Below, one piece after another: positions 8,590 through 44,922 of a stretch of DNA of 64,000 nt; the first letter of the stretch is position 1; every line of letters begins with the position of its first letter. The DNA is taken from the NCBI GenBank assembly GCA_964016885.1, contig OZ024742.1, positions 261,020,001 through 261,084,000 on the forward strand, in the 5' to 3' direction. This stretch comes from Eledone cirrhosa. Its lineage: Eukaryota. The notes under the pieces were generated by a model, which ran no database searches, was not told the DNA's origin, and was given only the letters and a program-made list of their open reading frames with translations. Position numbers and translations under genes: made by a program.

Positions 8590-8967
8590 TATAACAAAAT
8601 ACTGGTGTGTATGAATATAACAAGAGACGTGGGTTGTGTGTATAAAGTTTAATTAACAAGTTGAAGTTATGTAGAATAGAATTGTTGACATGTCCATGGG
8701 TAGATGAAAGAATGAAGTAAAGTTATTTGTTACCATTTTGAAGTTAGCTCGCAAGAGACCATGTTAGGGTTGCCAGGCGAACGCGCCTGGCCGAAGGGCC
8801 AGGCTAGTTAGAAGAGAGTGAGATCGCCCTGAGTATCCCTTTTATAGGGTCCCAGGACGGAAGTGACAAAAAGGGTTCTGCCACCCCAACGGGAAGTAAC
8901 TCCAGCTACCTCCTGTCTAGAGAGCGGTGATGTGATTGTCATAACAAGGGAGGCAACTCTTGCTACA
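8590..8967 (-). mobile_element. 3' LTR of a non-autonomous Gypsy-type element
   Basis: direct repeat of 10498-10769; preceded on the - strand by PPT ctggcgggggataa; termini TGTAGC...TATA. Confidence 0.85.
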
Positions 8968-10497: not shown

Positions 10498-10769
10498 TAT
10501 AACAAAATACTGGTGTGTATGAATATAACAAGAGACGTGGGTTGTGTGTATAAAGTTTAATTAACAAGTTGAAGTTATGTAGAATAGAATTATTGACATG
10601 TCCATGGGTAGATGAAAGAATGAAGTAAAGTTATTTGTTACGGTTTTGAAGTTAGCTCGCAAGAGACCATGTTAGGGTTGCCAAGCATACGCGCCTGGCC
10701 GAAGGGCCACGTTAGTTAGAAGAGAGTGAGATCGCCCTTAGTATCCTTTTTATAGGGTCCCAGGACGGA
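10498..10769 (-). mobile_element. truncated 5' LTR
   Basis: near-identical to 8590-8860; ends abruptly at the junction with Gypsy pol. Confidence 0.85.
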
Positions 10770-12719
10770 CTTCCCGAGAAAGTAGAAGCTATCCGTAGTT
10801 TTCCCGCATCTACATCACTTCGGAAACTGCGTGAATTCCTCGGTCTGGTGAATTTTTATAGGCGTTTTATCCCTCATTGTTCCGATGCAGCCAGACTCCC
10901 CACGGACCTTCTTCGTAACCGGACTCGCAAAAACGAAGAGATCACTCTAAACGAGGAAGAATTAACATCTTTTAACCGCCTGAAGGAAATGTTGGCAAAC
11001 GCTTCCATGCTCGTTTTCCCCAGGTCTGGCGCTCCTCTTTCGCTGCTAGTGGACGCATCAGACACGGGGGTTGGAGGCATCTTACAACAACATGTCGACG
11101 GCGTGTGGCAACCCTTATCCTTCTTTTCTAAGCGGTTGCAACCGGCAGAAACGAAATACAGTACCTTTGGCCGCAAACTCTTGGCAACCTATCTTTCGGT
11201 TAAGCATTTTCGGCACATGCTCGAAGGATCAGATTTCGTGATCTACACGGACCATAAACAACTAGTTTATGCGTTCCGTACCAAACCTGATCGACATTCA
11301 CCAAGAGAACTCCGATACCTGGATTTTGTCTCCCAATATTCAACTGATATTCGGCATATCAAGGGATCAGACAACGTAGCAGCCGACGCCCTGTCCCGAA
11401 CCCAGCTGAACGCAATATATGTGCATTCAGGCATCGACCTTCAACAGATCGCAGCTGACCAAGAGACTGACGAAGAGTTTATCAAGCTCCGAGATTCGCC
11501 ATCCCTCAAGTTTCAGCAAGTTCCCATTCCTTCTTCTCCGGGACAAATTTGGTGCGACCTTTCTACCGGTCATGAACGACTTTACGTACCACAGATGCAT
11601 CGTCGACAAGTTTTTTCTGCGTTACACTGCTTGTCTCACCCAGGAATCCGGGCTACACAGAAACTCGTCTCTGCTCGTTTTGTGTGGACTAACATTAACA
11701 AGGACGTGCGCGACTGGTCCAGGAGCGGCATTGCCTGCCAGAAAGCCAAAGTCCACAGACACATCAAAACTCCACTCGGCACATTCGCGCAACCTGATGC
11801 ACGTTTTCATCATGTGCATATCGACATCGTCGGACCTCTACCACCATCACAGAACTACACACACTTGCTCACCTGCATAGATCGATTTTCTCGTTGGCTT
11901 GAGGCTTTTCCCATAAATGATACCTCAGCGGAAACAGTCGCTAAAACTTTGGTTTTACACTGGGTATCACGTTATGGCGCCCCAGCGAAGATAACAACGG
12001 ACAGAGGACGCCAATTTGACTCCCACCTCTCCGGGGAACTGACTCGCCTGTTAGCATGTAAACACATCCGCACGACAGCTTATCACCCGCAAACTAATGG
12101 TCTCGTGGAAAGATTCTATCGCCAATTGAAAGCTGCAATAAAAGCATATCCAGACAAGACCCATTGGTTTGAATACATGCCACTCATCCTTCTGGGCATT
12201 CGATCCACCGTTAAGGAGGAATTTGGACACACACCTGCAGAATTAGTGTACGGCACCACCCTGGTTCTACCTGGTCAGATGGTTGCTCCCATCTCTCCTC
12301 AGGATGTTCCAGACCCAGGATCATACGTACACCGTCTTCGACAATATATGTCTCACCTTGCTCCTGCAAGCACCCGTCAACAGAACACGGCCACACATGT
12401 ACCTTCAGACATTAAAGATTGGACACACGTTTTCGTTCGAAACGACACCATCTCAGCTCATCTTCGACCTCCATATTCTGGCCCTTATCGTGTTCTAAAA
12501 AAATATCCGAAATATTTTATTCTCGATCTAGATGGTAAACAGAATTCTGTCAGCGTGGACAGATTAAAAAAAACCATCATGGATACTGTTACAGTCTCAA
12601 CACCAGAAACTCCAACAGATTGCTGTCCCAGCGAGCCACCTGTTTCCTCTCCAGTCACGAGAAGTGGACGACGCGTCCATTGGCCCGCCAAGTTGACACA
12701 ATATGTGAATTACCGTTAA
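10770..12719 (+). CDS. pol: Ty3/Gypsy pol, 5'-truncated (RT C-terminus, RNase H, integrase)
   Basis: [45 protein letters not shown] / TDRG / VERF DDE triad, GPY motif; conserved ELLA appears as KLLA and the first zinc Cys as G. Confidence 0.95.
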
Positions 12720-13382: not shown

Positions 13383-13742
13383 TGTACAGCCACCGGAAAT
13401 AACATCTGTGAAATATACAGTGCCACCTACCTGTTAGCTAGCTACCTCACCGTGAAACAAAACAACCCTTAGAAGCTACTAGAATAAACGCCTACACAGC
13501 GGCTAAACATCAAACGATTATTTCTGTATAAATAGAGTGGTTCCAAACACTTCGCCAGTCGACATTTGGCAGAGTCAACCCGCGTATCGTTGTCCCTCGC
13601 CTCTGCCACGCTTTGTCACTCACACACGCCTTGTACCTTGTATCGTCGCTTCATGTGAAAATAAATAGCTGATCGAATTTACATCTCGCCTTGCTTCGTC
13701 CTTTCAACTTGTGCTTTCGTCTGTCCATCCTCACCGGTGACA
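13383..13742 (+). mobile_element. Gypsy 3' LTR
   Basis: PPT ctggcagggggctaa, then TG...CA; TATAAATA at ~13527 and AATAAA at ~13660. Confidence 0.8.
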
Positions 13743-13878
13743 ACAGTTCTTTTAAGGGCTACCTTCAGATCTGATCAGACCGTATGCGACAACAGTTCTT
13801 TTAAGGGCTATCTTCAGATCTGATCAGACCGTATGCGATAACAGTCCTTCTCAGGGCTGTTCTCAGATCTGATCAGAA
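13740..13878. repeat. 49-bp tandem repeat, about 3 copies
   Basis: acaacagttcttttaagggctaYcttcagatctgatcagaccgtatgcg. Confidence 0.85.
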
Positions 13879-14228: not shown

Positions 14229-14276
<48 letters not shown>

Positions 14277-14428
14277 AATAGGGAGACACAAAGCAAGCTT
14301 CATTAAGAAACGGCTAGCGAATTTGAAAATTATGTAGTAACATGTGCTTACGCCATATTTGACTAAATAGAATCAGTCTGTTAGTTGGGATTTTAAACAA
14401 CTCTCTGAATGGAAAAAAGGATGAGTAT

Positions 14429-14499
14429 TGATGTTCATGGGACACGAACCAACATCTTTGGTTTGCCGGACCAATGTGTTACCATTACACCAACACGCC
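14429..14499 (-). tRNA. tRNA-like cloverleaf (anticodon GGC), repeat-embedded
   Basis: reverse-complement copy of 14951-15020. Confidence 0.6.
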
Positions 14500-14950
14500 A
14501 CCCATGCTTTGTTCCATTCAATTAAAAGCTATGTAACCATAGCAGATATTTATATGTATATAAATAGGGAGACACAAAGCAGGGTTTTTTTTACAAACTG
14601 CTAGCGAATTTGAAAATTATGTAGTAACATGTGCTTATGCCGTATTTGACTAAATAGAATCAGTCAGTTAGTTGGGATTTTAAAAAACCCTCTGAATGGC
14701 AAACCAAAGACGTGGATTTGTGTCCGTGTACGTCAATACTCATCCTTTTTTCCATTTAGAGGTTTTTTTTAAAAATCCCAGCTAACAGACTGATTCTATT
14801 TAGTCAAATATGGCGTAAGCACATGTTACTACATAATTTTCAAATTCGCTAGCCGTTTCTTAATGAAGCTTGCTTTGTGTCTCCCTATTTATATATATAT
14901 ATACCTGCTTCAGTTACATAGCTTCTAATTGAATGCAACGAAGCATGGGT

Positions 14951-15020
14951 GGCGTGTTGGTGTAATGGTAACACATTGGTCCGGCAAACCAAAGATATGG
15001 GTTCGTTCCCATGTACGTCA
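14951..15020 (+). tRNA. tRNA-like cloverleaf (anticodon GGC), repeat-embedded
   Basis: acceptor GGCGTGT/GTACGTC, D stem GTGT/ACAC, anticodon arm TTGGT-CCGGCAA-ACCAA, T arm ATGGG-TTCGTT-CCCAT; A and B boxes; T-run follows. Confidence 0.65.
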
Positions 15021-15119
15021 ATCTTTTTTCCATTCAGTGGGTTTTTTAAAATCTAACTAACAGACTAATTCTATTTAGTCAAATACGGAATAAGCACATG
15101 TTACTACCTAATACATATA

Positions 15120-27250: not shown

Positions 27251-28229
27251 ATGAGTAGTATATATATAAAAGTACATATAAACCTGTGGAGCAAATATTT
27301 ATTATTAGAATAGATTAAAGTTTAAGGAAAGAATTTCTGCTTTCACCCTATACAGAATCTTCTGAAACTGAGAAAAATCAATCTGTAGCCGTAGAAGTAA
27401 ATATTTTTAAAAACGTTACAACCAAAAAGATAACAGAGAGACATAATGGTGGTACGTGAAGACATTCTCTTGCGATGGGTGAAAAATATGTAAGGATAAT
27501 TATGTCATGTGGAGCAAGAACAATTTCTTGCTATGAAAATATCCAGGAGACTAATATTCTTTTTAGAATAACCGAATGATTTCCAGTTACCATGTATGGA
27601 AAATGATGTTAATAAAAGTAAAATGATTAAATGAAAAAAATCTGAAGTTGTTAATAATAGTAAAAGTAATAATAATGAGAGCTTTAATAGTAGTGGTATA
27701 TGTTGACCTGTGTGGATGCATGGGTAAGCAAGGATATAGTGTATAAAAACATGTACATATACACATGTACATGTGTGCATGTACACATGTAAGCACATGT
27801 ATGTTTATATGTGCGCACACAAATGTATACATACATATTCGCATATATTATACATACATGCGTGCATCTATGTATATACATTTGCATAAATATTCAATAT
27901 ACACATACACATACATGTGCATTCACCTACTTACAAATGATATGCATAATGCATATATATAGATATATCAAAGGTATATATTGAGTTAGGAACTCAAAAT
28001 AGTCTCTTACAACAAAATAGCTCTAAGAAAGAGATATTTCCGAGCCGTATATTATAATTGAATATAAAAGAAAAATGAACACAGATATATACATATATGT
28101 GTTCAAATCGCAAGGGACCAGATTCGCTAAGGTAAAAAGAATACTAACTATAGACAATAGGGTTTGCCAGACTCAATTTAAGAATAAATCAAGAAAATAA
28201 ATACAAACCGGAATTGTGGTAACTACCAA

Positions 28230-28310
28230 TCACCCAGACAGCGTTTGGCTATACTGTTTCACAAAATTAATTGTGAAGAGGAATACCGATTCTTGCTCAT
28301 CAGTGGGTGA
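28230..28310 (-). ncRNA. type I hammerhead ribozyme
   Basis: tcaccca CTGATGA gcaa..ttgt GAAA cagt..gctg TC tgggtga. Confidence 0.85.
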
Positions 28311-28704
28311 AGAATATTAGTATCCTGGACACTTCTAAGTATATTAAAAAACTGAATAGTGTGCATATATAATAACGCACATGGTATCTGAACTTAGCGT
28401 GTCTCACAAACTTACACCACTAAAACTAGCAGCCAGGTTTACTCGACATTTGAATTAGCTCAACAAATTAACGGAGCCGAATATATCAAAGGTATATATT
28501 GAGTTAGAAACTCAATATATATCAAAGGTATATATATTGAGTTAGAAACTCAAAATAGTCTCTTACAACAAAAGTTCTAGGAAAGAGAATTTTCCAAGCC
28601 GTGTATTATAATTGAATATACGGCTCGGAAAAATCGTTTTATTATATATAGCACACTATTCAGTTTTTTAATATACTTAGAAGTGTCCAGGATACTAATA
28701 TTCT

Positions 28705-28784
28705 TCACCCACTGATGAGCAAGCATCGGTATTCCTCTTCACAATTAATTTTGCGAAACAGCTGACCAAACGCTGTCTGGGTGA
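28705..28784 (+). ncRNA. type I hammerhead ribozyme
   Basis: tcaccca CTGATGA gcaa..ttgc GAAA cagc..gctg TC tgggtga; canonical core, GUC triplet, all three stems. Confidence 0.92.
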
Positions 28785-29026
28785 TTGGTAGTTACCACAA
28801 TTCCGGTTTGTATTTATTTTCTTGATTTATTCTTAAATTGAGTCTGGCAAACCCTATTGTCTATAGTTAGTATTCTTTTTACCTTAGCGAATCTGGTCCC
28901 TTGCGATTTGAACACATATATGTATATATCTGTGTTCGTTTTTCTTTTATATTCAATTATAATAGATATATATGAAAAGATTCAGGACCCCAATGGCTGA
29001 GCTCCGGCTGTTTTGACAGCTAGATC

Positions 29027-39501: not shown

Positions 39502-39683
39502 CACGGTAAAAACCTCCCAGCCCCACACTGTAAATGTGGTTGGTGTTAGGAAGGGCATCCAGCTGTAGAAAACCCGCCAGACAGTCCTATGCGAGCAAGA
39601 CAACCACTCTTGCCTCAAGTGGGAAAACCCCCGTCCAAACCCATGCAAGCGTGGAACACGGACGCTAAACATGATGATGATGA
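39502..39683 (+). mobile_element. RTE family B 3' UTR, inverted relative to 38286-38480
   Basis: near-identical reverse complement; GAT tail. Confidence 0.9.
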
Positions 39684-39950
39684 TATATATATATACACAT
39701 ATATATATATATATACATATATATATATCGTTTCTGAATTTGTTTAGCAAGATTCTTTATCTGAAATCGTGTGTTGAAACCGATATTGTTATACTTTGGG
39801 AGGGTCATGTTGCCAATAAGAAACACACGCACCAGTTGCTTTCACTTCAATTTATTATATATTTATAAATTCATAAATTTACAAATCTACAAACTTATAA
39901 ATTTCTGGTTGGTTGGTTGGTTCCACAACCAGATAGTTGTCTATATATAT

Positions 39951-39995
39951 AGTCATAGTCCTTTCGTCACACACTCTGTGACCTCTTCAGTGACT
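39951..39995 (-). ncRNA. minimal type I hammerhead in the PLE 3' UTR
   Basis: agtca CTGAAGA g gtcaca..tgtgac GAAA ggac TA tgact. Confidence 0.8.
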
Positions 39996-40304
39996 GGGGA
40001 TTCCTTTCTTCGTTTCTGTGCCTTTCCTTTCTTCTATCCTACGCCATTTTGTTTCTGTGTGTGTGTTGTGTGCTCAGTTTGCGCATGCGCCACATCCGGG
40101 TGTCTGTGTGTGTTTGTGTTCATTTTTAAATTTTTCTATTTATATTTTTCTATTTGTTTATTTATTTATTTATTTATTGTTGGTTGGTTGTTTGTTCTAT
40201 GTGTGTGTGTGTGTTTTCATTTTGTCCTGTGTGTGTTTTCATTTTGTGTGTGTTTTCAATTGTAAGTTGTTTGTTCTATGTGTGTGTGTGTTTTCATTTT
40301 GTCC

Positions 40305-43007
40305 TTAATTGTAAGTTGTGATGTTGCTGTTCCACTCATATTTTCTATTTAATTTTGGTTTTAATTCTTTTATGCTTACTGCCTCTGTAATTTGCCTAAA
40401 CATTGCGTCTTTTCTGTGTGTGGATTCTATTTTTATTTCTATGCTCTCTAATCTACCCCCGTGTTCTATCTTAGCATGTTGGTAGAGCACAGATGATTCT
40501 TTATTATCTTGGAGGTCTCGCCAGTGTTCATTTATTCGTTCCCCTATACTACGAGCTGTCTCACCTATGTACACTATATTTTTGTTTCTACATTGTCCTT
40601 CAGTACATCTTATGCTATACACTACATTTCTAGTTTTACAGTTAATATGGGGGCTTATTTTACAGGTTATACATTTCTTATCTATACATGAGGGTCTTTG
40701 GAACGGGTATGTCTTGCTAATAAGTGTTTTTACGGAGGTACCAGGTCTTTCTACTATCTTAATATTGAGATTATGTTTATTTAGGGCCCTTCTAAATTTG
40801 TAGGCTAGTTCGCCTCTAGGGGTTGTATTGATGAACATTACACTCTGGTATTTATTGCTATCATACCATGAGTTTATTCTATTGGCCTTGTTCCTAGTTC
40901 TTTCTATTCTATTCCAAAATTTGCTCCTATACAAGGGGCAGGTCCCATTTATGTCATTATTTACCATTTTTTCCCATTTGGTTCTGGCTCCTTTATACAC
41001 TCTGATTCTATCTCTCTGATTGTAGCCAGAGAACTGCATACGGTGGATGAAGTGTTGTATGTATCTCTCTAGTTCTTCGGGGTTGCACATGCGGGACATA
41101 TTTCTCATCACCCGTACCAAATCCGCAATCAGTATGTTGATTTTGGTATGGTCCGAAATGGCCGAGTTTCGGTGGATCAGATGTTTGGAAGTCATGGGTT
41201 TGGCATAATGGGAATGGAGGATTTTTTTTTGGTTGTTAATGGTATCTAACCAGAGCTCTGTGTCTAGTACAGGTAATCGATGGTTGGGGTGTCTACTTGG
41301 GTAGTCTATAGTAACTCTAATGCTCTGGTGGATGGAGTTTGCTATTTGCTGGATGCTTTCCATTGTGTTTTTCTCTAGTTCCTGACTGTTCTTTAGTGGG
41401 GGTGTCTTAACTACGATGTTTATATCATCTACGTAGCGGGAGTACATTATCAGGGTTAAGCTGTCTTCTAATTGTTCATTAAGTTTTTGTTTAAGTCTAC
41501 TGTCCCACCATACCATGAATAAGTTAGCTATGTCGCCTGCAATGCTAACACCAATGGCTGCTCCTTCCTCTTGGGCATATGTTTTACCATTAAATTTGAA
41601 CATATGTTCCTTAAGGGTTAATTTTATGCTGGTCCCTACCGCATGTGCAATCATTTTCTTCAGTTCATCGTGGTTTTCGGGTGTCCGTATGGCTCTGGTC
41701 CACCCGTTCCATCTATCTGTGTGGGTTTTCTTGGCCATTGAGGTAATGGTAGGTGGTCTGCCTCTTGCTGGTCTTGTAGGGCACAGGTTGCTAAGGTCAT
41801 AAGTGTCTAGGTAACTATTACTATGGGTAAGCTTAAGTAGAAGTCCCAGCTCACTGGTATCAATCCCACGGAACTCAACCTTGCTCTCGCTGATCATTTC
41901 TACGCATTTCTCCACAGCAAAATCCACGTCAATAGATGGATACAGAGACACAACATCCATACTGCCTATTATGCAGTTTGTTAGGTCCCCAGATCGGTTA
42001 CTCACGCCGATTCTGCTGAGGAGGTCCTCCGTGCTGTCACACACATCTGGGGACATCTCAATGATGGGGCGCATGATCAGGGAGAGGAAGTAGGACAGTC
42101 TGTAGTTACTAGCAATGTTAGCCCCACAGACTGGCCGTGTTGGTGGTCCCGCGACAGGGTCCCAGCCCGTTTTATGGTCTTTTCGGAGCCCATACAACGC
42201 CGGCACGTCATTGTTCCAGGCCTGGAAGTTGTTGGCAGTCCTTTTGTTGGGCTGCATTATATTCGTCCACATCACCATATGGGCATTGAGGGCTTTTTCT
42301 CTATCCCCATGCTCCTGTGGTGTTACCTCTCTTGTGTTAGTGATGTGGGGTTGCATTGCCTGGATGTAGTTTGGCAGGCTGTCAACCGACATTCTGCCAG
42401 ACTTGTCTGTTGGAAAACATGCTATCTCTCCACTACGCGAGCGCTGCATGAGCTTACGCAAGCCATTTGCAGATTCTTCTCCCAGTTGCTGGGCCTCTAT
42501 TCTATTATGCTTCTTGCTATACTGTTCTATAATATTTCTAAGTTCGGCTTTAGCTATACTAAATTGTGCTTCTGTTTGTTCATCGACCTGCGACGGCAAC
42601 TGCATGCGTTTGTTAAATGGCAAAGTCGTGGCGTGGACTCGTCGTAGGTCGAATGATTTATCGGAGGGGTTATAAAACGGAGAGTTCCAGGCTGCTGCTT
42701 TATGTGTACTAGTGCTATTATTATTGTTAGTTGTGTTGTTTCTATTTCCACCAACAGCCTCAGCTTCATGATTGTTTCTATGTCTCTCATAATTACTCCT
42801 GTCTCTTTCCACTGGCTCAATGTTGTTATCTACCCTATTTTGTGTGTCTGTGTGTTCGTCTTGGTTATTCTCTTTGTCCTTAGTCTCCCATCTCCTTTTC
42901 CTTTTAATCCTATTACTTTCTCTTATTTCTCTGATTTCTGTGCTACTGTCATTACTTGTTTTCTGTGTCTGTGTGTTTGTTAAGATTGTGGTGGTGGTGA
43001 GAGGCAT
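40305..43007 (-). CDS. PLE polyprotein: RT plus C-terminal GIY-YIG endonuclease
   Basis: TDKSG, LYGLRKDHK, DVVSLYPSI, QEEGAAIG, RYVDD, LPVLD, Cys linker, VVYSIRC...YIGET.R....R..EH. Confidence 0.95.
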   Translation of the reverse strand: MPLTTTTILTNTQTQKTSNDSSTEIREIRESNRIKRKRRWETKDKENNQDEHTDTQNRVDNNIEPVERDRSNYERHRNNHEAEAVGGNRNNTTNNNNSTSTHKAAAWNSPFYNPSDKSFDLRRVHATTLPFNKRMQLPSQVDEQTEAQFSIAKAELRNIIEQYSKKHNRIEAQQLGEESANGLRKLMQRSRSGEIACFPTDKSGRMSVDSLPNYIQAMQPHITNTREVTPQEHGDREKALNAHMVMWTNIMQPNKRTANNFQAWNNDVPALYGLRKDHKTGWDPVAGPPTRPVCGANIASNYRLSYFLSLIMRPIIEMSPDVCDSTEDLLSRIGVSNRSGDLTNCIIGSMDVVSLYPSIDVDFAVEKCVEMISESKVEFRGIDTSELGLLLKLTHSNSYLDTYDLSNLCPTRPARGRPPTITSMAKKTHTDRWNGWTRAIRTPENHDELKKMIAHAVGTSIKLTLKEHMFKFNGKTYAQEEGAAIGVSIAGDIANLFMVWWDSRLKQKLNEQLEDSLTLIMYSRYVDDINIVVKTPPLKNSQELEKNTMESIQQIANSIHQSIRVTIDYPSRHPNHRLPVLDTELWLDTINNQKKILHSHYAKPMTSKHLIHRNSAISDHTKINILIADLVRVMRNMSRMCNPEELERYIQHFIHRMQFSGYNQRDRIRVYKGARTKWEKMVNNDINGTCPLYRSKFWNRIERTRNKANRINSWYDSNKYQSVMFINTTPRGELAYKFRRALNKHNLNIKIVERPGTSVKTLISKTYPFQRPSCIDKKCITCKISPHINCKTRNVVYSIRCTEGQCRNKNIVYIGETARSIGERINEHWRDLQDNKESSVLYQHAKIEHGGRLESIEIKIESTHRKDAMFRQITEAVSIKELKPKLNRKYEWNSNITTYN

Positions 43008-43224
43008 TGAATGCGTGTGTGTTGTTGATGTGTGTTGTTGTTGATGTGTGTTGTTGTTGTCTCCGTGTGTGTGTGTGTTATCGTTGTTGTGTGTGTTGTT
43101 ATTGTTGTTTGTGTCTGCGTGTCTGTTGTTGTATCTGGGTATGTTGCTATTGTTGTTGTTGTTGTTGATGTGTGTGTTGTTGTTATTGTTGTCTCCGTGT
43201 GTGTTATCGTTGTTGTGTGTGTTA

Positions 43225-43712
43225 TTATTGTTGTTTGTGTCTGTTGTTGTTGTATCTGGGTATGTTGCTATTGTTGTTGTTGTTGTATCTGGGTATGTTG
43301 CTATTGTTGTTGTTATTGTTGTTTGTGTCTGTGTGTCTGTTGTTGTTGGGATGTGTGTTGTATATGTGTGTGCGTATATTGTTGCTTTTGTTTTTGATGC
43401 TCCAGCGTAGTTTTGTAAATGATTTTTCTATTTCTGACAGACAACTAATCATATTTACCTTCTTGAATGTCGCAAATTTGGGTGGCAGACGTAACACAGA
43501 CATTTCATTATTATCTATTTCCGTGTTTCCATAAATGTTGGTATTTTCGTTGTTGAACTCTTCAGATAATGAGGTGTCGGCCATGTTGATACCGTCAATT
43601 TTGTCGGGATATCTATTGGTATACTCTATAGTATCCCGATTTTGCTTTGCCTGTTTAAGCCACTTTAATTTTCTGTTAAAGTGCTTATCACATTCTTGAG
43701 TAATGTACTGTT
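43225..43712 (-). pseudogene. frameshifted N-terminal part of the PLE ORF
   Basis: EMSVLRLPPKFA...KLRW resembles a PLE N-terminal motif; out of frame with the 900-aa ORF across an Asn/Thr-rich repeat. Confidence 0.75.
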
Positions 43713-44319
43713 CTGAAGGACAATGTAGAAACAAAAATATAGTGTACATAGGTGAGACAGCTCGTAGTATAGGGGAACGAATAAATGAACACTGGCGAGA
43801 CCTCCAAGATAATAAAGAATCATCTGTGCTCTACCAACATGCTAAGATAGAACACAGGGGTAGATTAGAGAGCATAGAAATAAAAATAGAATCCACACAC
43901 AGAAAAGACGCAATGTTTAGGCAAATTACAGAGGCAGTAAGCATAAAAGAATTAAAACCAAAATTAAATAGAAAATATGAGTGGAACAGCAACATCACAA
44001 CTTACAATTAAGGACAAAATGAAAACACACACACACATAGAACAAACAACTTACAATTGAAAACACACACAAAATGAAAACACACACAGGACAAAATGAA
44101 AACACACACACACACATAGAACAAACAACCAACCAACAATAAATAAATAAATAAATAAACAAATAGAAAAATATAAATAGAAAAATAAAAAATGAACACA
44201 AACACACACAGACACCCGGATGTGGCGCATGCGCAAACTGAGCACACAACACACACACAGAAACAAAATGGCGTAGGATAGAAGAAAGGAAAGGCACAGA
44301 AACGAAGAAAGGAATCCCC

Positions 44320-44364
44320 AGTCACTGAAGAGGTCACAGAGTGTGTGACGAAAGGACTATGACT
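44320..44364 (+). ncRNA. minimal type I hammerhead in the inverted pLTR
   Basis: same motif as 39951-39995. Confidence 0.8.
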
Positions 44365-44524
44365 ATATATATAAACAACTATCTGGTTGTGGAACCAACC
44401 AACCAACCAGAAATTTATAAGTTTGTAGATTTGTAAATTTATGAATTTATAAATATATAATAAATTGAAGTGAAAGCAACTGGTGCGTGTGTTTCTTATT
44501 GGCAACATGACCCTCCCAAAGTAT

Positions 44525-44922
<398 letters not shown>

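Follow-up and report, generated by a model that had tools for sequence, protein, structure and literature searches.

Animal non-LTR retrozymes are non-coding repeats with low-GC units of 150-450 bp, each of which bears a type I hammerhead ribozyme (Cervera and de la Pena 2020, PMC7229834), and it has been argued that they derive from Penelope-like elements (PLEs) (Li, Clavereau and Pollet 2026, bioRxiv 10.64898/2026.07.22.740005). PLEs themselves are described with partial tandems, inverted truncated arms, an optional tail of 30-40 bp and a bias for (TA)n targets (PMC8557442). This tail lies between two reverse transcriptase (RT) start sites in a stem-loop—an arrangement called unique to PLEs—and the hammerhead is not needed for PLE insertion in vitro (PMC11167929). 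The element described here, from a window of 64,000 nucleotides (the whole stretch of DNA that was analysed, G000:C3:261020001-261084000), bears on the question of whether PLE mobility depends on hammerheads and circles (PMC8557442, PMC11167929). We consider it probable that this element is a non-coding repeat built around a tRNA module, with no detectable ribozyme, which the RT and endonuclease of a Neptune-type PLE insert into TA microsatellites, likely from a circular or multimeric RNA.

Like non-LTR retrozymes, the element ranges from monomers to long tandems, has no LTR, PBS or PPT, and is a proposed non-autonomous PLE derivative. Where retrozymes carry a type I hammerhead, however, it carries a tRNA fold closed by a long stem, and circular RNA, putative here, has been shown for retrozymes. 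It works like a non-LTR retrozyme but does not belong to them, as it has no hammerhead. A tRNA module in a retrozyme unit is not mentioned in the searched text of PMC7229834 or of bioRxiv 10.64898/2026.07.22.740005, and in that of the latter the term "tRNA" does not occur at all. Neptune-type PLEs and their pLTRs (PMC8557442, PMC11167929) share with the element partial tandems, an inverted 5'-truncated arm, a two-site tail and the (TA)n target; in contrast to them it has neither an ORF nor a hammerhead, and no long match to the PLEs sampled. The MRC1-type elements of Chlamys are likewise non-autonomous and pLTR-forming, frequently with several copies arranged head-to-tail, in a clade that mostly lacks hammerheads, but they live in green algae, have 3' ends that resemble those of their partners, and are not described with a tRNA module in the part of PMC8557442 consulted.

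Small-RNA genes also occur within other mobile elements. The TRIMp3 elements Helenus, Ajax and Cassandra (PMC10886601) hold such a part in a non-autonomous element that is not a SINE, with a tRNA unlikely to decode. They differ by two LTRs, a PBS, a PPT, target duplications of 4-5 bp and their dependence on LTR elements (PMC10886601), a layout not seen here, where copies are permuted single-unit tandems without an internal region; the name Penelope does not occur in the searched text of that source. The hammerhead-bearing SINE-like repeats of Schistosoma (PMC6765202) are tandem, with a Pol III-type promoter part and multimeric transcripts, but there the hammerhead—absent here—releases monomers. 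Finally, tRNA-derived SINEs share a tRNA part with A and B boxes, a length of about 300 bp and thousands of copies. The present element differs from them in having no fixed tRNA 5' end, no regular target duplications, permuted and inverted copies and, as compared within the window, no LINE-like tail. Judged by titles and abstract beginnings, the literature searched describes no PLE dependant that bears a tRNA and lacks a ribozyme; Repbase or Dfam may hold the family under another label.

The copy in the window

The element is a two-armed insertion at 14263-15112 with a unit of 286 nt and about 1.5 units per arm. An initial annotation of this DNA had described a 286-bp monomer in partial head-to-tail tandem with an inversion at about 14698, and this is confirmed by spacing and unit mapping: the tandem spacing is 285-287 nt and the arms are inverted, far beyond chance. 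The arms are joined 5'-to-5' at 14697/14698, and both 3' ends lie in TA-rich DNA. On the minus strand, the left arm runs from about 14697 to 14263 and comprises unit positions ~134-286 followed by one whole unit that reaches (TA)n. On the plus strand, the right arm runs from 14698 to 15112 and comprises positions 83-286 followed by 1-221. Hereby, the left arm ends at site 2 and the right arm at site 1 of the two 3'-end sites of the family. Two details of the annotation had to be changed: the (TA)n tract, from which the element was thought to start, is its 3' end—the insertion target—in the tRNA sense, and unit mapping moves the right boundary from 15105 to 15112. The features of the locus are:

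14232-14272, no strand: (TA)n target of the left-arm 3' end, in a tract that spans 14232-14280 (family 3' ends precede TA/CA runs)
14263-14697, minus: left arm, partial tandem of ~1.5 units ending at site 2 (~14273); 94% to the subfamily majority
14310-14356, minus: covarying stem with a large loop that holds 3'-end site 1 (14329), a putative RT start element
14406-14426, minus: trailer strand of the outer stem, including a T6 tract (subfamily comparison)
14429-14499, minus: tRNA-like cloverleaf, whole copy 1 (Rfam RF00005, 38.5 bits)
14500-14520, minus: purine-rich leader pairing with the trailer over ~20 bp including G-U pairs (duplex of -24.5 kcal/mol for the subfamily majority)
14549-14559, minus: head-to-tail unit junction with a short TA run (tandem mapping)
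14697-14698, no strand: inversion point, 5'-to-5' join of the arms (unit mapping)
14698-15112, plus: right arm of ~1.5 units, stopping exactly at site 1 with a short AT-rich remnant beyond; 90% to the majority
14698-14735, plus: 3' half of a 5'-truncated tRNA-like module (unit mapping)
14810-14856, plus: site-1 stem-loop of the first unit of the right arm (subfamily comparison)
14930-14950, plus: leader strand of the outer stem, whose trailer partner is 8 nt shorter in this copy (alignment)
14951-15020, plus: tRNA-like cloverleaf, whole copy 2, with the loop CCGGCAA (Rfam RF00005, 52.4 bits, E 2e-8; ARAGORN)

No ORF of at least 150 aa lies over the element, and its unit matches no other repeat inside the window. 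An empty site or a target duplication was not found at this locus, whose flanks are unrelated or inverted repeat fragments. To the left of the insertion lies a 49-bp tandem repeat of 2.8 copies (13739-13877), and further left a Gypsy-like RNase H/integrase frame of 667 aa (10716-12719) with a 272-bp direct repeat near it (8590-8861 and 10498-10769).

A family of four subfamilies

DNA searches of the 3.0-Gb animal assembly gave 1838 and 1341 first-look candidates, 40 of each being scored, and sister subfamilies were found by following divergent matches; samples of this kind favour long, well-kept copies. Four subfamilies were distinguished—A with a unit of 286 nt (this window), B with 258, D with 270 and E with 289 nt—which are 72-92% identical pairwise. 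Their units are non-coding, have ~37-38% GC and occur as anything from monomers to arrays of up to 17 units, most copies having 85-97% identity to the majority sequence of their own subfamily and showing CpG decay. A 16-mer from the tRNA D arm is found exactly 452 times and its one-letter variant 1508 times (48 and 0 for the reversed-pattern controls). As the exact 16-mer is found in just 34 of the 61 sampled subfamily-A modules, the true unit numbers exceed these counts, and the family amounts to about two thousand tRNA-bearing units or more in the genome.

The family is also present in contigs of a second organism. There, contig depth is ~tenfold higher over the tRNA part only (window 14420-14510, run X4), and the abundant relative has, by column-wise differences, the loop CTGGTAA with U33 and a GGT anticodon. 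Four 16-nt motifs of the family are absent from one supplementary file of PMC8557442.

The tRNA module

Rfam model RF00005 matches the stretches 14951-15020(+) and 14429-14499(-) with 52.4 and 38.5 bits, respectively, and ARAGORN reports the former only, as Ala(GGC). Of the cloverleaf that the initial annotation saw in each monomer, two whole examples stand, whereas the third (14698-14735) is a 3' half only. The A and B boxes fared similarly: a good A box is present, but A58, which is near-invariant, is missing from the B box of the window's subfamily A. The description as fully paired holds for subfamily A, with three G-U pairs in the acceptor stem; the minimum free energy fold of the isolated 72-73-mers differs from the cloverleaf.

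That the element has no hammerhead is borne out by core and Rfam searches. Within the window element the hammerhead core has no match, and with one mismatch allowed the four circular majority units contain two antisense, unconserved matches only. Among 150 of the 184 Rfam matches in the window there is no ribozyme family, and at E<=5 two arrays returned the tRNA plus two weak unrelated matches.

The weight that had been put on tRNA-Ala(GGC) and C33 is not supported. The anticodon loop reads CCGGCAA in A, CTGGATA in two subfamilies and CATGGTA in one, and hence GGC and C33 both vary; in view of this variation, the idea that GGC is a meaningful "forbidden" anticodon was rejected. The frame is nearer to host tRNA-Gln, which among the sampled Gln, Thr and Ile genes is the closest with 45-49 of ~72 positions identical (38-43 for Thr/Ile). 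A tRNA-Ala would be expected to show U33, A58, G3-U70 and a stable anticodon; a functional gene of this type was rejected, as subfamily A has C33, no A58 and C3-G70, and the loop varies by subfamily. A tRNA-Thr donor via a GGT subfamily was likewise dismissed, with only scattered variants in this genome, and a search for a phage tRNA donor yielded nothing significant. The host tRNA-Gln genes form a tandem cluster (G000:C1:168211720-168275586, L216-L226), one member of which has a CTA anticodon and is called "Pyl" by ARAGORN; clusters of tRNA-Thr lie at L125 and L127.

Of the 64 tRNA columns that remain when the anticodon loop is set aside, 54 do not vary among the four subfamilies, compared with 74 of 152 columns elsewhere (Fisher p 8e-7); within the loop it is 3 of 7. 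Pairing was assessed in 41 natural copies—the window copy plus the ten best of each subfamily—in which 93% of the 1098 cells of the cloverleaf and the inner part of the outer stem are paired, with 1 of 500 shuffles as high. Base changes in the stems are mostly one-sided, from G-C or A-U to G-U. Two-sided changes occur at five stem pairs (42 of 500 shuffles as high), including one clean change from U-A to C-G in subfamily E. In 29 of the 41 rows the uppermost pair of the anticodon stem is unpaired. The covariation score of the module is reached by 17 of 500 shuffles; with only four lineages compared, we regard these data together as moderate evidence. In the tRNA sense the unit folds better than its shuffles, with z between -1.8 and -3.2, and better than in antisense, where z lies between +0.5 and -2.3. 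It is likely that the module serves as a folded RNA rather than for decoding.

This conservation might also reflect mere ancestry. In such a scenario a decayed pLTR or retrozyme would have captured the head of an old tRNA-SINE, the tRNA being carried along as a passenger, and the PLE enzymes would read the 3' stem-loop only. PLEs and the non-autonomous Chlamys elements do spread without hammerheads (PMC8557442), the subfamilies differ by just 8-28%, and copies decay neutrally with CpG loss. Against this, no region is better conserved among the subfamily masters than the tRNA part, and the outer stem is maintained through different sequences, so that we regard a passenger as quite improbable and a folded, acting tRNA module as the better reading.

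The outer stem and transcription

The cloverleaf is closed in all four subfamilies by a leader-trailer stem of ~18-21 bp with -15.6 to -24.5 kcal/mol. It is kept via differing sequences, and its G-U pairs work on the tRNA-sense strand only. This stem and the U5-6 tract are features that the initial annotation missed. In the DNA of each subfamily, the latter is a T5-6 run that comes ~10 nt after the tRNA and lies upstream of both 3'-end sites; each unit bears two or three runs of T4-T6, the one just past the tRNA being the first. Further downstream, a stem of 7-9 bp with a loop of 22-27 nt accommodates 3'-end site 1 in that loop, and both sides of the stem co-vary between subfamilies. By analogy with the stem-loop described in PMC11167929, this stem is likely the RT start element of the family.

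A Pol III promoter had been proposed as one role of the tRNA mimic. The A box is invariant across the four subfamilies and the B box is canonical in B and D, which favours a PLE-dependent element whose tRNA serves as an internal Pol III promoter only and whose template is the read-through, uncut multimer. Nevertheless, transcription by Pol III should terminate at a T run and thus before the RT start sites. As the T5-6 run follows the tRNA and precedes both 3'-end sites in all four subfamilies, a simple promoter role is argued against, and Pol III becomes a doubtful source of the mobile RNA. In addition, the B box has no A58 in A and E, 5' ends do not pile up at the expected start, and the acceptor, anticodon and outer stems are kept, although a DNA promoter could do without these stems. 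Precedents that favour this reading exist in transcripts of Cassandra that run from the 5S part of one LTR into the next (PMC10886601) and in the Pol III multimer transcripts of the Schistosoma elements (PMC6765202). On balance we consider a promoter-only tRNA unlikely and prefer a module that acts as folded RNA.

Copy ends and inversions

For the analysis of ends, 141 loci were split into 246 segments after duplicate loci had been dropped. Their 5' ends are scattered round the unit. At the tRNA start (unit positions 38-55), 5/105, 2/49, 1/33 and 3/36 of them are found in the four subfamilies, with 6.6, 3.4, 2.2 and 2.2 expected. The initial annotation had named two observations that would speak against it: copies starting mostly at the tRNA 5' end with target duplications and tails, as in an ordinary SINE, or stems without covariation. 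As 5' ends at the tRNA start occur at about chance level and the stems are kept across subfamilies, the annotation is not refuted, and its view that this is not an ordinary SINE is supported. In subfamily A, 5' ends cluster at the TA junction, which we read as annealing to the target because B and D, without TA there, show this cluster weakly.

The 3' ends fall into two intervals, drawn after the data were seen, in 79/105 segments of A, 38/49 of B, 28/33 of D and 28/36 of E (expected 14.7, 5.7, 2.1 and 5.4). The two sites are spaced by ~36-37 nt in B and D and by ~56-60 nt in A and E, and TA/CA runs follow the 3' ends of 71/105, 43/53, 28/37 and 22/36 segments in the four subfamilies. Subfamily B has a base-precise second 3' end, beyond which its unit goes on without TA. 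Neighbouring segments on opposite strands face each other 5'-to-5' in 80 of 83 cases in the 141 loci and in all 19 cases in the first 100 pattern matches; 15 of 26 pattern-picked loci are inverted.

A few observations could still speak for a tRNA-SINE moved by a LINE (for instance RTE), in which nested insertion in TA tracts, twin priming or later DNA rearrangement made the tandems and inversions. The tRNA is near the 5' side if the unit is opened at its TA junction, the window has many RTE-like fragments, and two of the 26 pattern-picked loci look like plain, uninverted monomers starting at unit 43-46, one of them (L068) with a 10-nt flanking repeat. Scattered 5' ends, two discrete 3' ends, outward arms and arrays of up to 17 units speak against it. 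Moreover, unit junctions in B and D contain no TA, and the tandems are therefore not SINEs nested in each other's tails. Flanking repeats of at least 6 nt that are not microsatellite occur in just 9 of 55 single-segment loci, with one convincing case, TA targets being able to hide duplications. The end and arm patterns have already largely refuted this reading, and we hold it to be highly improbable.

The link to Penelope-like elements

The family combines the partial tandem, the inverted 5'-truncated arm, the two 3' ends and the (TA)n target of PLE type. The earlier suggestion of a PLE-mobilised, non-autonomous element is thus supported by scattered 5' ends, outward arms and two fixed 3' ends, and very probably a PLE enzyme mobilises the family by nicking (TA)n and starting reverse transcription at site 1 or 2.

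The likeness to the hammerhead elements of the window also holds: inverted arms with outward 3' ends recur at 28050-28964 and 39683-44626. The first of these has TA-rich outer ends and, at 28257(-) and 28712(+), a hammerhead-like core whose stem II is long. The second is a PLE with a 1040-aa RT/GIY-YIG frame (40305-43427, minus), an inverted pLTR, hammerhead cores at 39962(-) and 44325(+), and two 3' ends ~57 nt apart.

A direct contact between the two kinds of element is seen at locus L011, where the end of a PLE ORF and its 3' UTR up to the hammerhead core pass directly into subfamily A at unit position 99. Both parts are on the same strand with no PLE remainder behind, and the PLE part has 72% identity to the window PLE over 761 nt. 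This join is no assembly error, since 28 raw reads of run X5 show it; an insertion followed by a deletion could be an alternative origin. Among 85 free 5' junctions there are one clear and one ambiguous PLE fusion. A subfamily-D piece at L252 was rejected as a fusion, being an inverted insertion.

GIY-YIG loci are abundant, and where they were translated, the majority showed a Neptune-type cysteine linker (motif name as in PMC8557442). The search for a partner covered 30 + 20 GIY-YIG loci, of at least 150 among 10596 candidates. In one Neptune-type family, the final 11 nt ahead of TA are also those of the site-2 end of subfamily A. Because of this shared end and the abundance of such loci, the autonomous partner is likely a Neptune-type PLE, as yet putative. 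Beyond the 11-nt end, none of the 52 PLE stretches compared—the 50 GIY-YIG loci and the two window PLEs—shows a significant long match or contains a tRNA. A match of 17/19 between the end of subfamily D and a Neptune 3' UTR (E 0.49) was not counted. Another observation concerns an abundant Neptune-type family (L180, L183, L196, L199 and related), whose 3' UTR bears, by eye, a hammerhead-like core that the strict motif misses for its changed first base.

Template and proposed mechanism

Segments often exceed one unit, and in B and D two units. An array of 17 B units starts mid-unit and ends at site 1 plus (TA)n. It lacks a distance gradient (adjacent units 13.3%, far units 12.7%), and two variants are common to 15 units—as expected of a concatemer that would have been made in one step. 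Derived bases are shared 2-5x more within a locus than between loci, and about equally within and between arms. Together these patterns would fit a circle, but also a homogeneous multimer. The window locus is uneven: one unit pair shares 7 derived bases and the other five pairs 0-2. An array of D units (L177/L178, G000:C4:61009638-61012409) has a two-unit period, with units at even distances 2.0-2.8% and at odd distances 2.9-3.8% different, apart from one pair at distance 8 that differs by 4.1%. This period hints at a dimer template, and a single monomer circle would not be expected to give either it or the unevenness of the window locus. That the template is a closed circle of one or two units, rather than an uncut multimer, we rate at slightly below an even chance.

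Long tandem arrays and a two-unit period in one of them could also call to mind a DNA-level satellite or a rolling-circle element of Helitron type. The variable 5' ends, the fixed 3' ends into (TA)n, the strand-specific G-U pairs and the fusion with a PLE 3' UTR leave this hardly credible, and an RNA template copied by PLE enzymes is preferred.

How might such an RNA arise? A host nuclease that reads the tRNA shape would cut a read-through multimer once per unit, either as RNase P at +1 or as an anticodon-loop nuclease. The leader-trailer stem of 18-21 bp and the acceptor stem would hold the ends of the monomer together for ligation, and the PLE enzyme would roll round the resulting circle, copying it into (TA)n. 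The tRNA module would hereby fill the job that the hammerhead has in retrozymes. The initial annotation had suggested cuts by RNase P/Z; cutting by both cannot yield a whole unit, because the tRNA would be removed. An RNase P cut would require a 5'-phosphate ligase, and pairing of U(-1) disfavours nuclear RNase P; in the family module, U(-1) is able to pair with the trailer. For retrozymes, closure of the monomers by RtcB has been shown (PMC7229834), and this would suit an anticodon-loop cut. The cutting step may even be dispensable, since PLE insertion in vitro proceeds without a hammerhead (PMC11167929). The full chain—one host cut per unit, clamping by the outer stem, ligation and rolling reverse transcription—is tentative and, as a whole, rather unlikely to be right in every step. 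Equally tentative is a ribozyme-free class of circular-RNA retroelements in which a tRNA mimic might recruit host nuclease and ligase and Penelope enzymes copy the circles.

Significance and related repeats

As a non-autonomous dependant, the family gives PLEs a SINE-like parasite—the missing counterpart of SINEs for LINEs and of TRIMp3 for LTR elements. Its short unit, two precise 3' ends and covarying stem make it a compact substrate for studying recognition by PLE enzymes. If the tRNA fold does replace a ribozyme, this would be a new route to circular RNA in animals. Repeats of this type would be classed as SINEs or tRNA pseudogenes, inflating counts of tRNAs with odd anticodons.

A different AT-rich repeat of ~1.7 kb also carries a tRNA. 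It is young (93-96% identical; L126, L128-L136 and L210-L212, at G000:C4:143422500-143428300 and others); its ends are fixed and lie in TA, it starts with a hairpin, and a segment inside it is inverted. Its tRNA is near-perfect (up to 71.5 bits), in another frame, mostly with a GGC anticodon loop and, by eye, with leader-trailer complementarity; this repeat makes up 10 of the 16 RF00005 matches listed.
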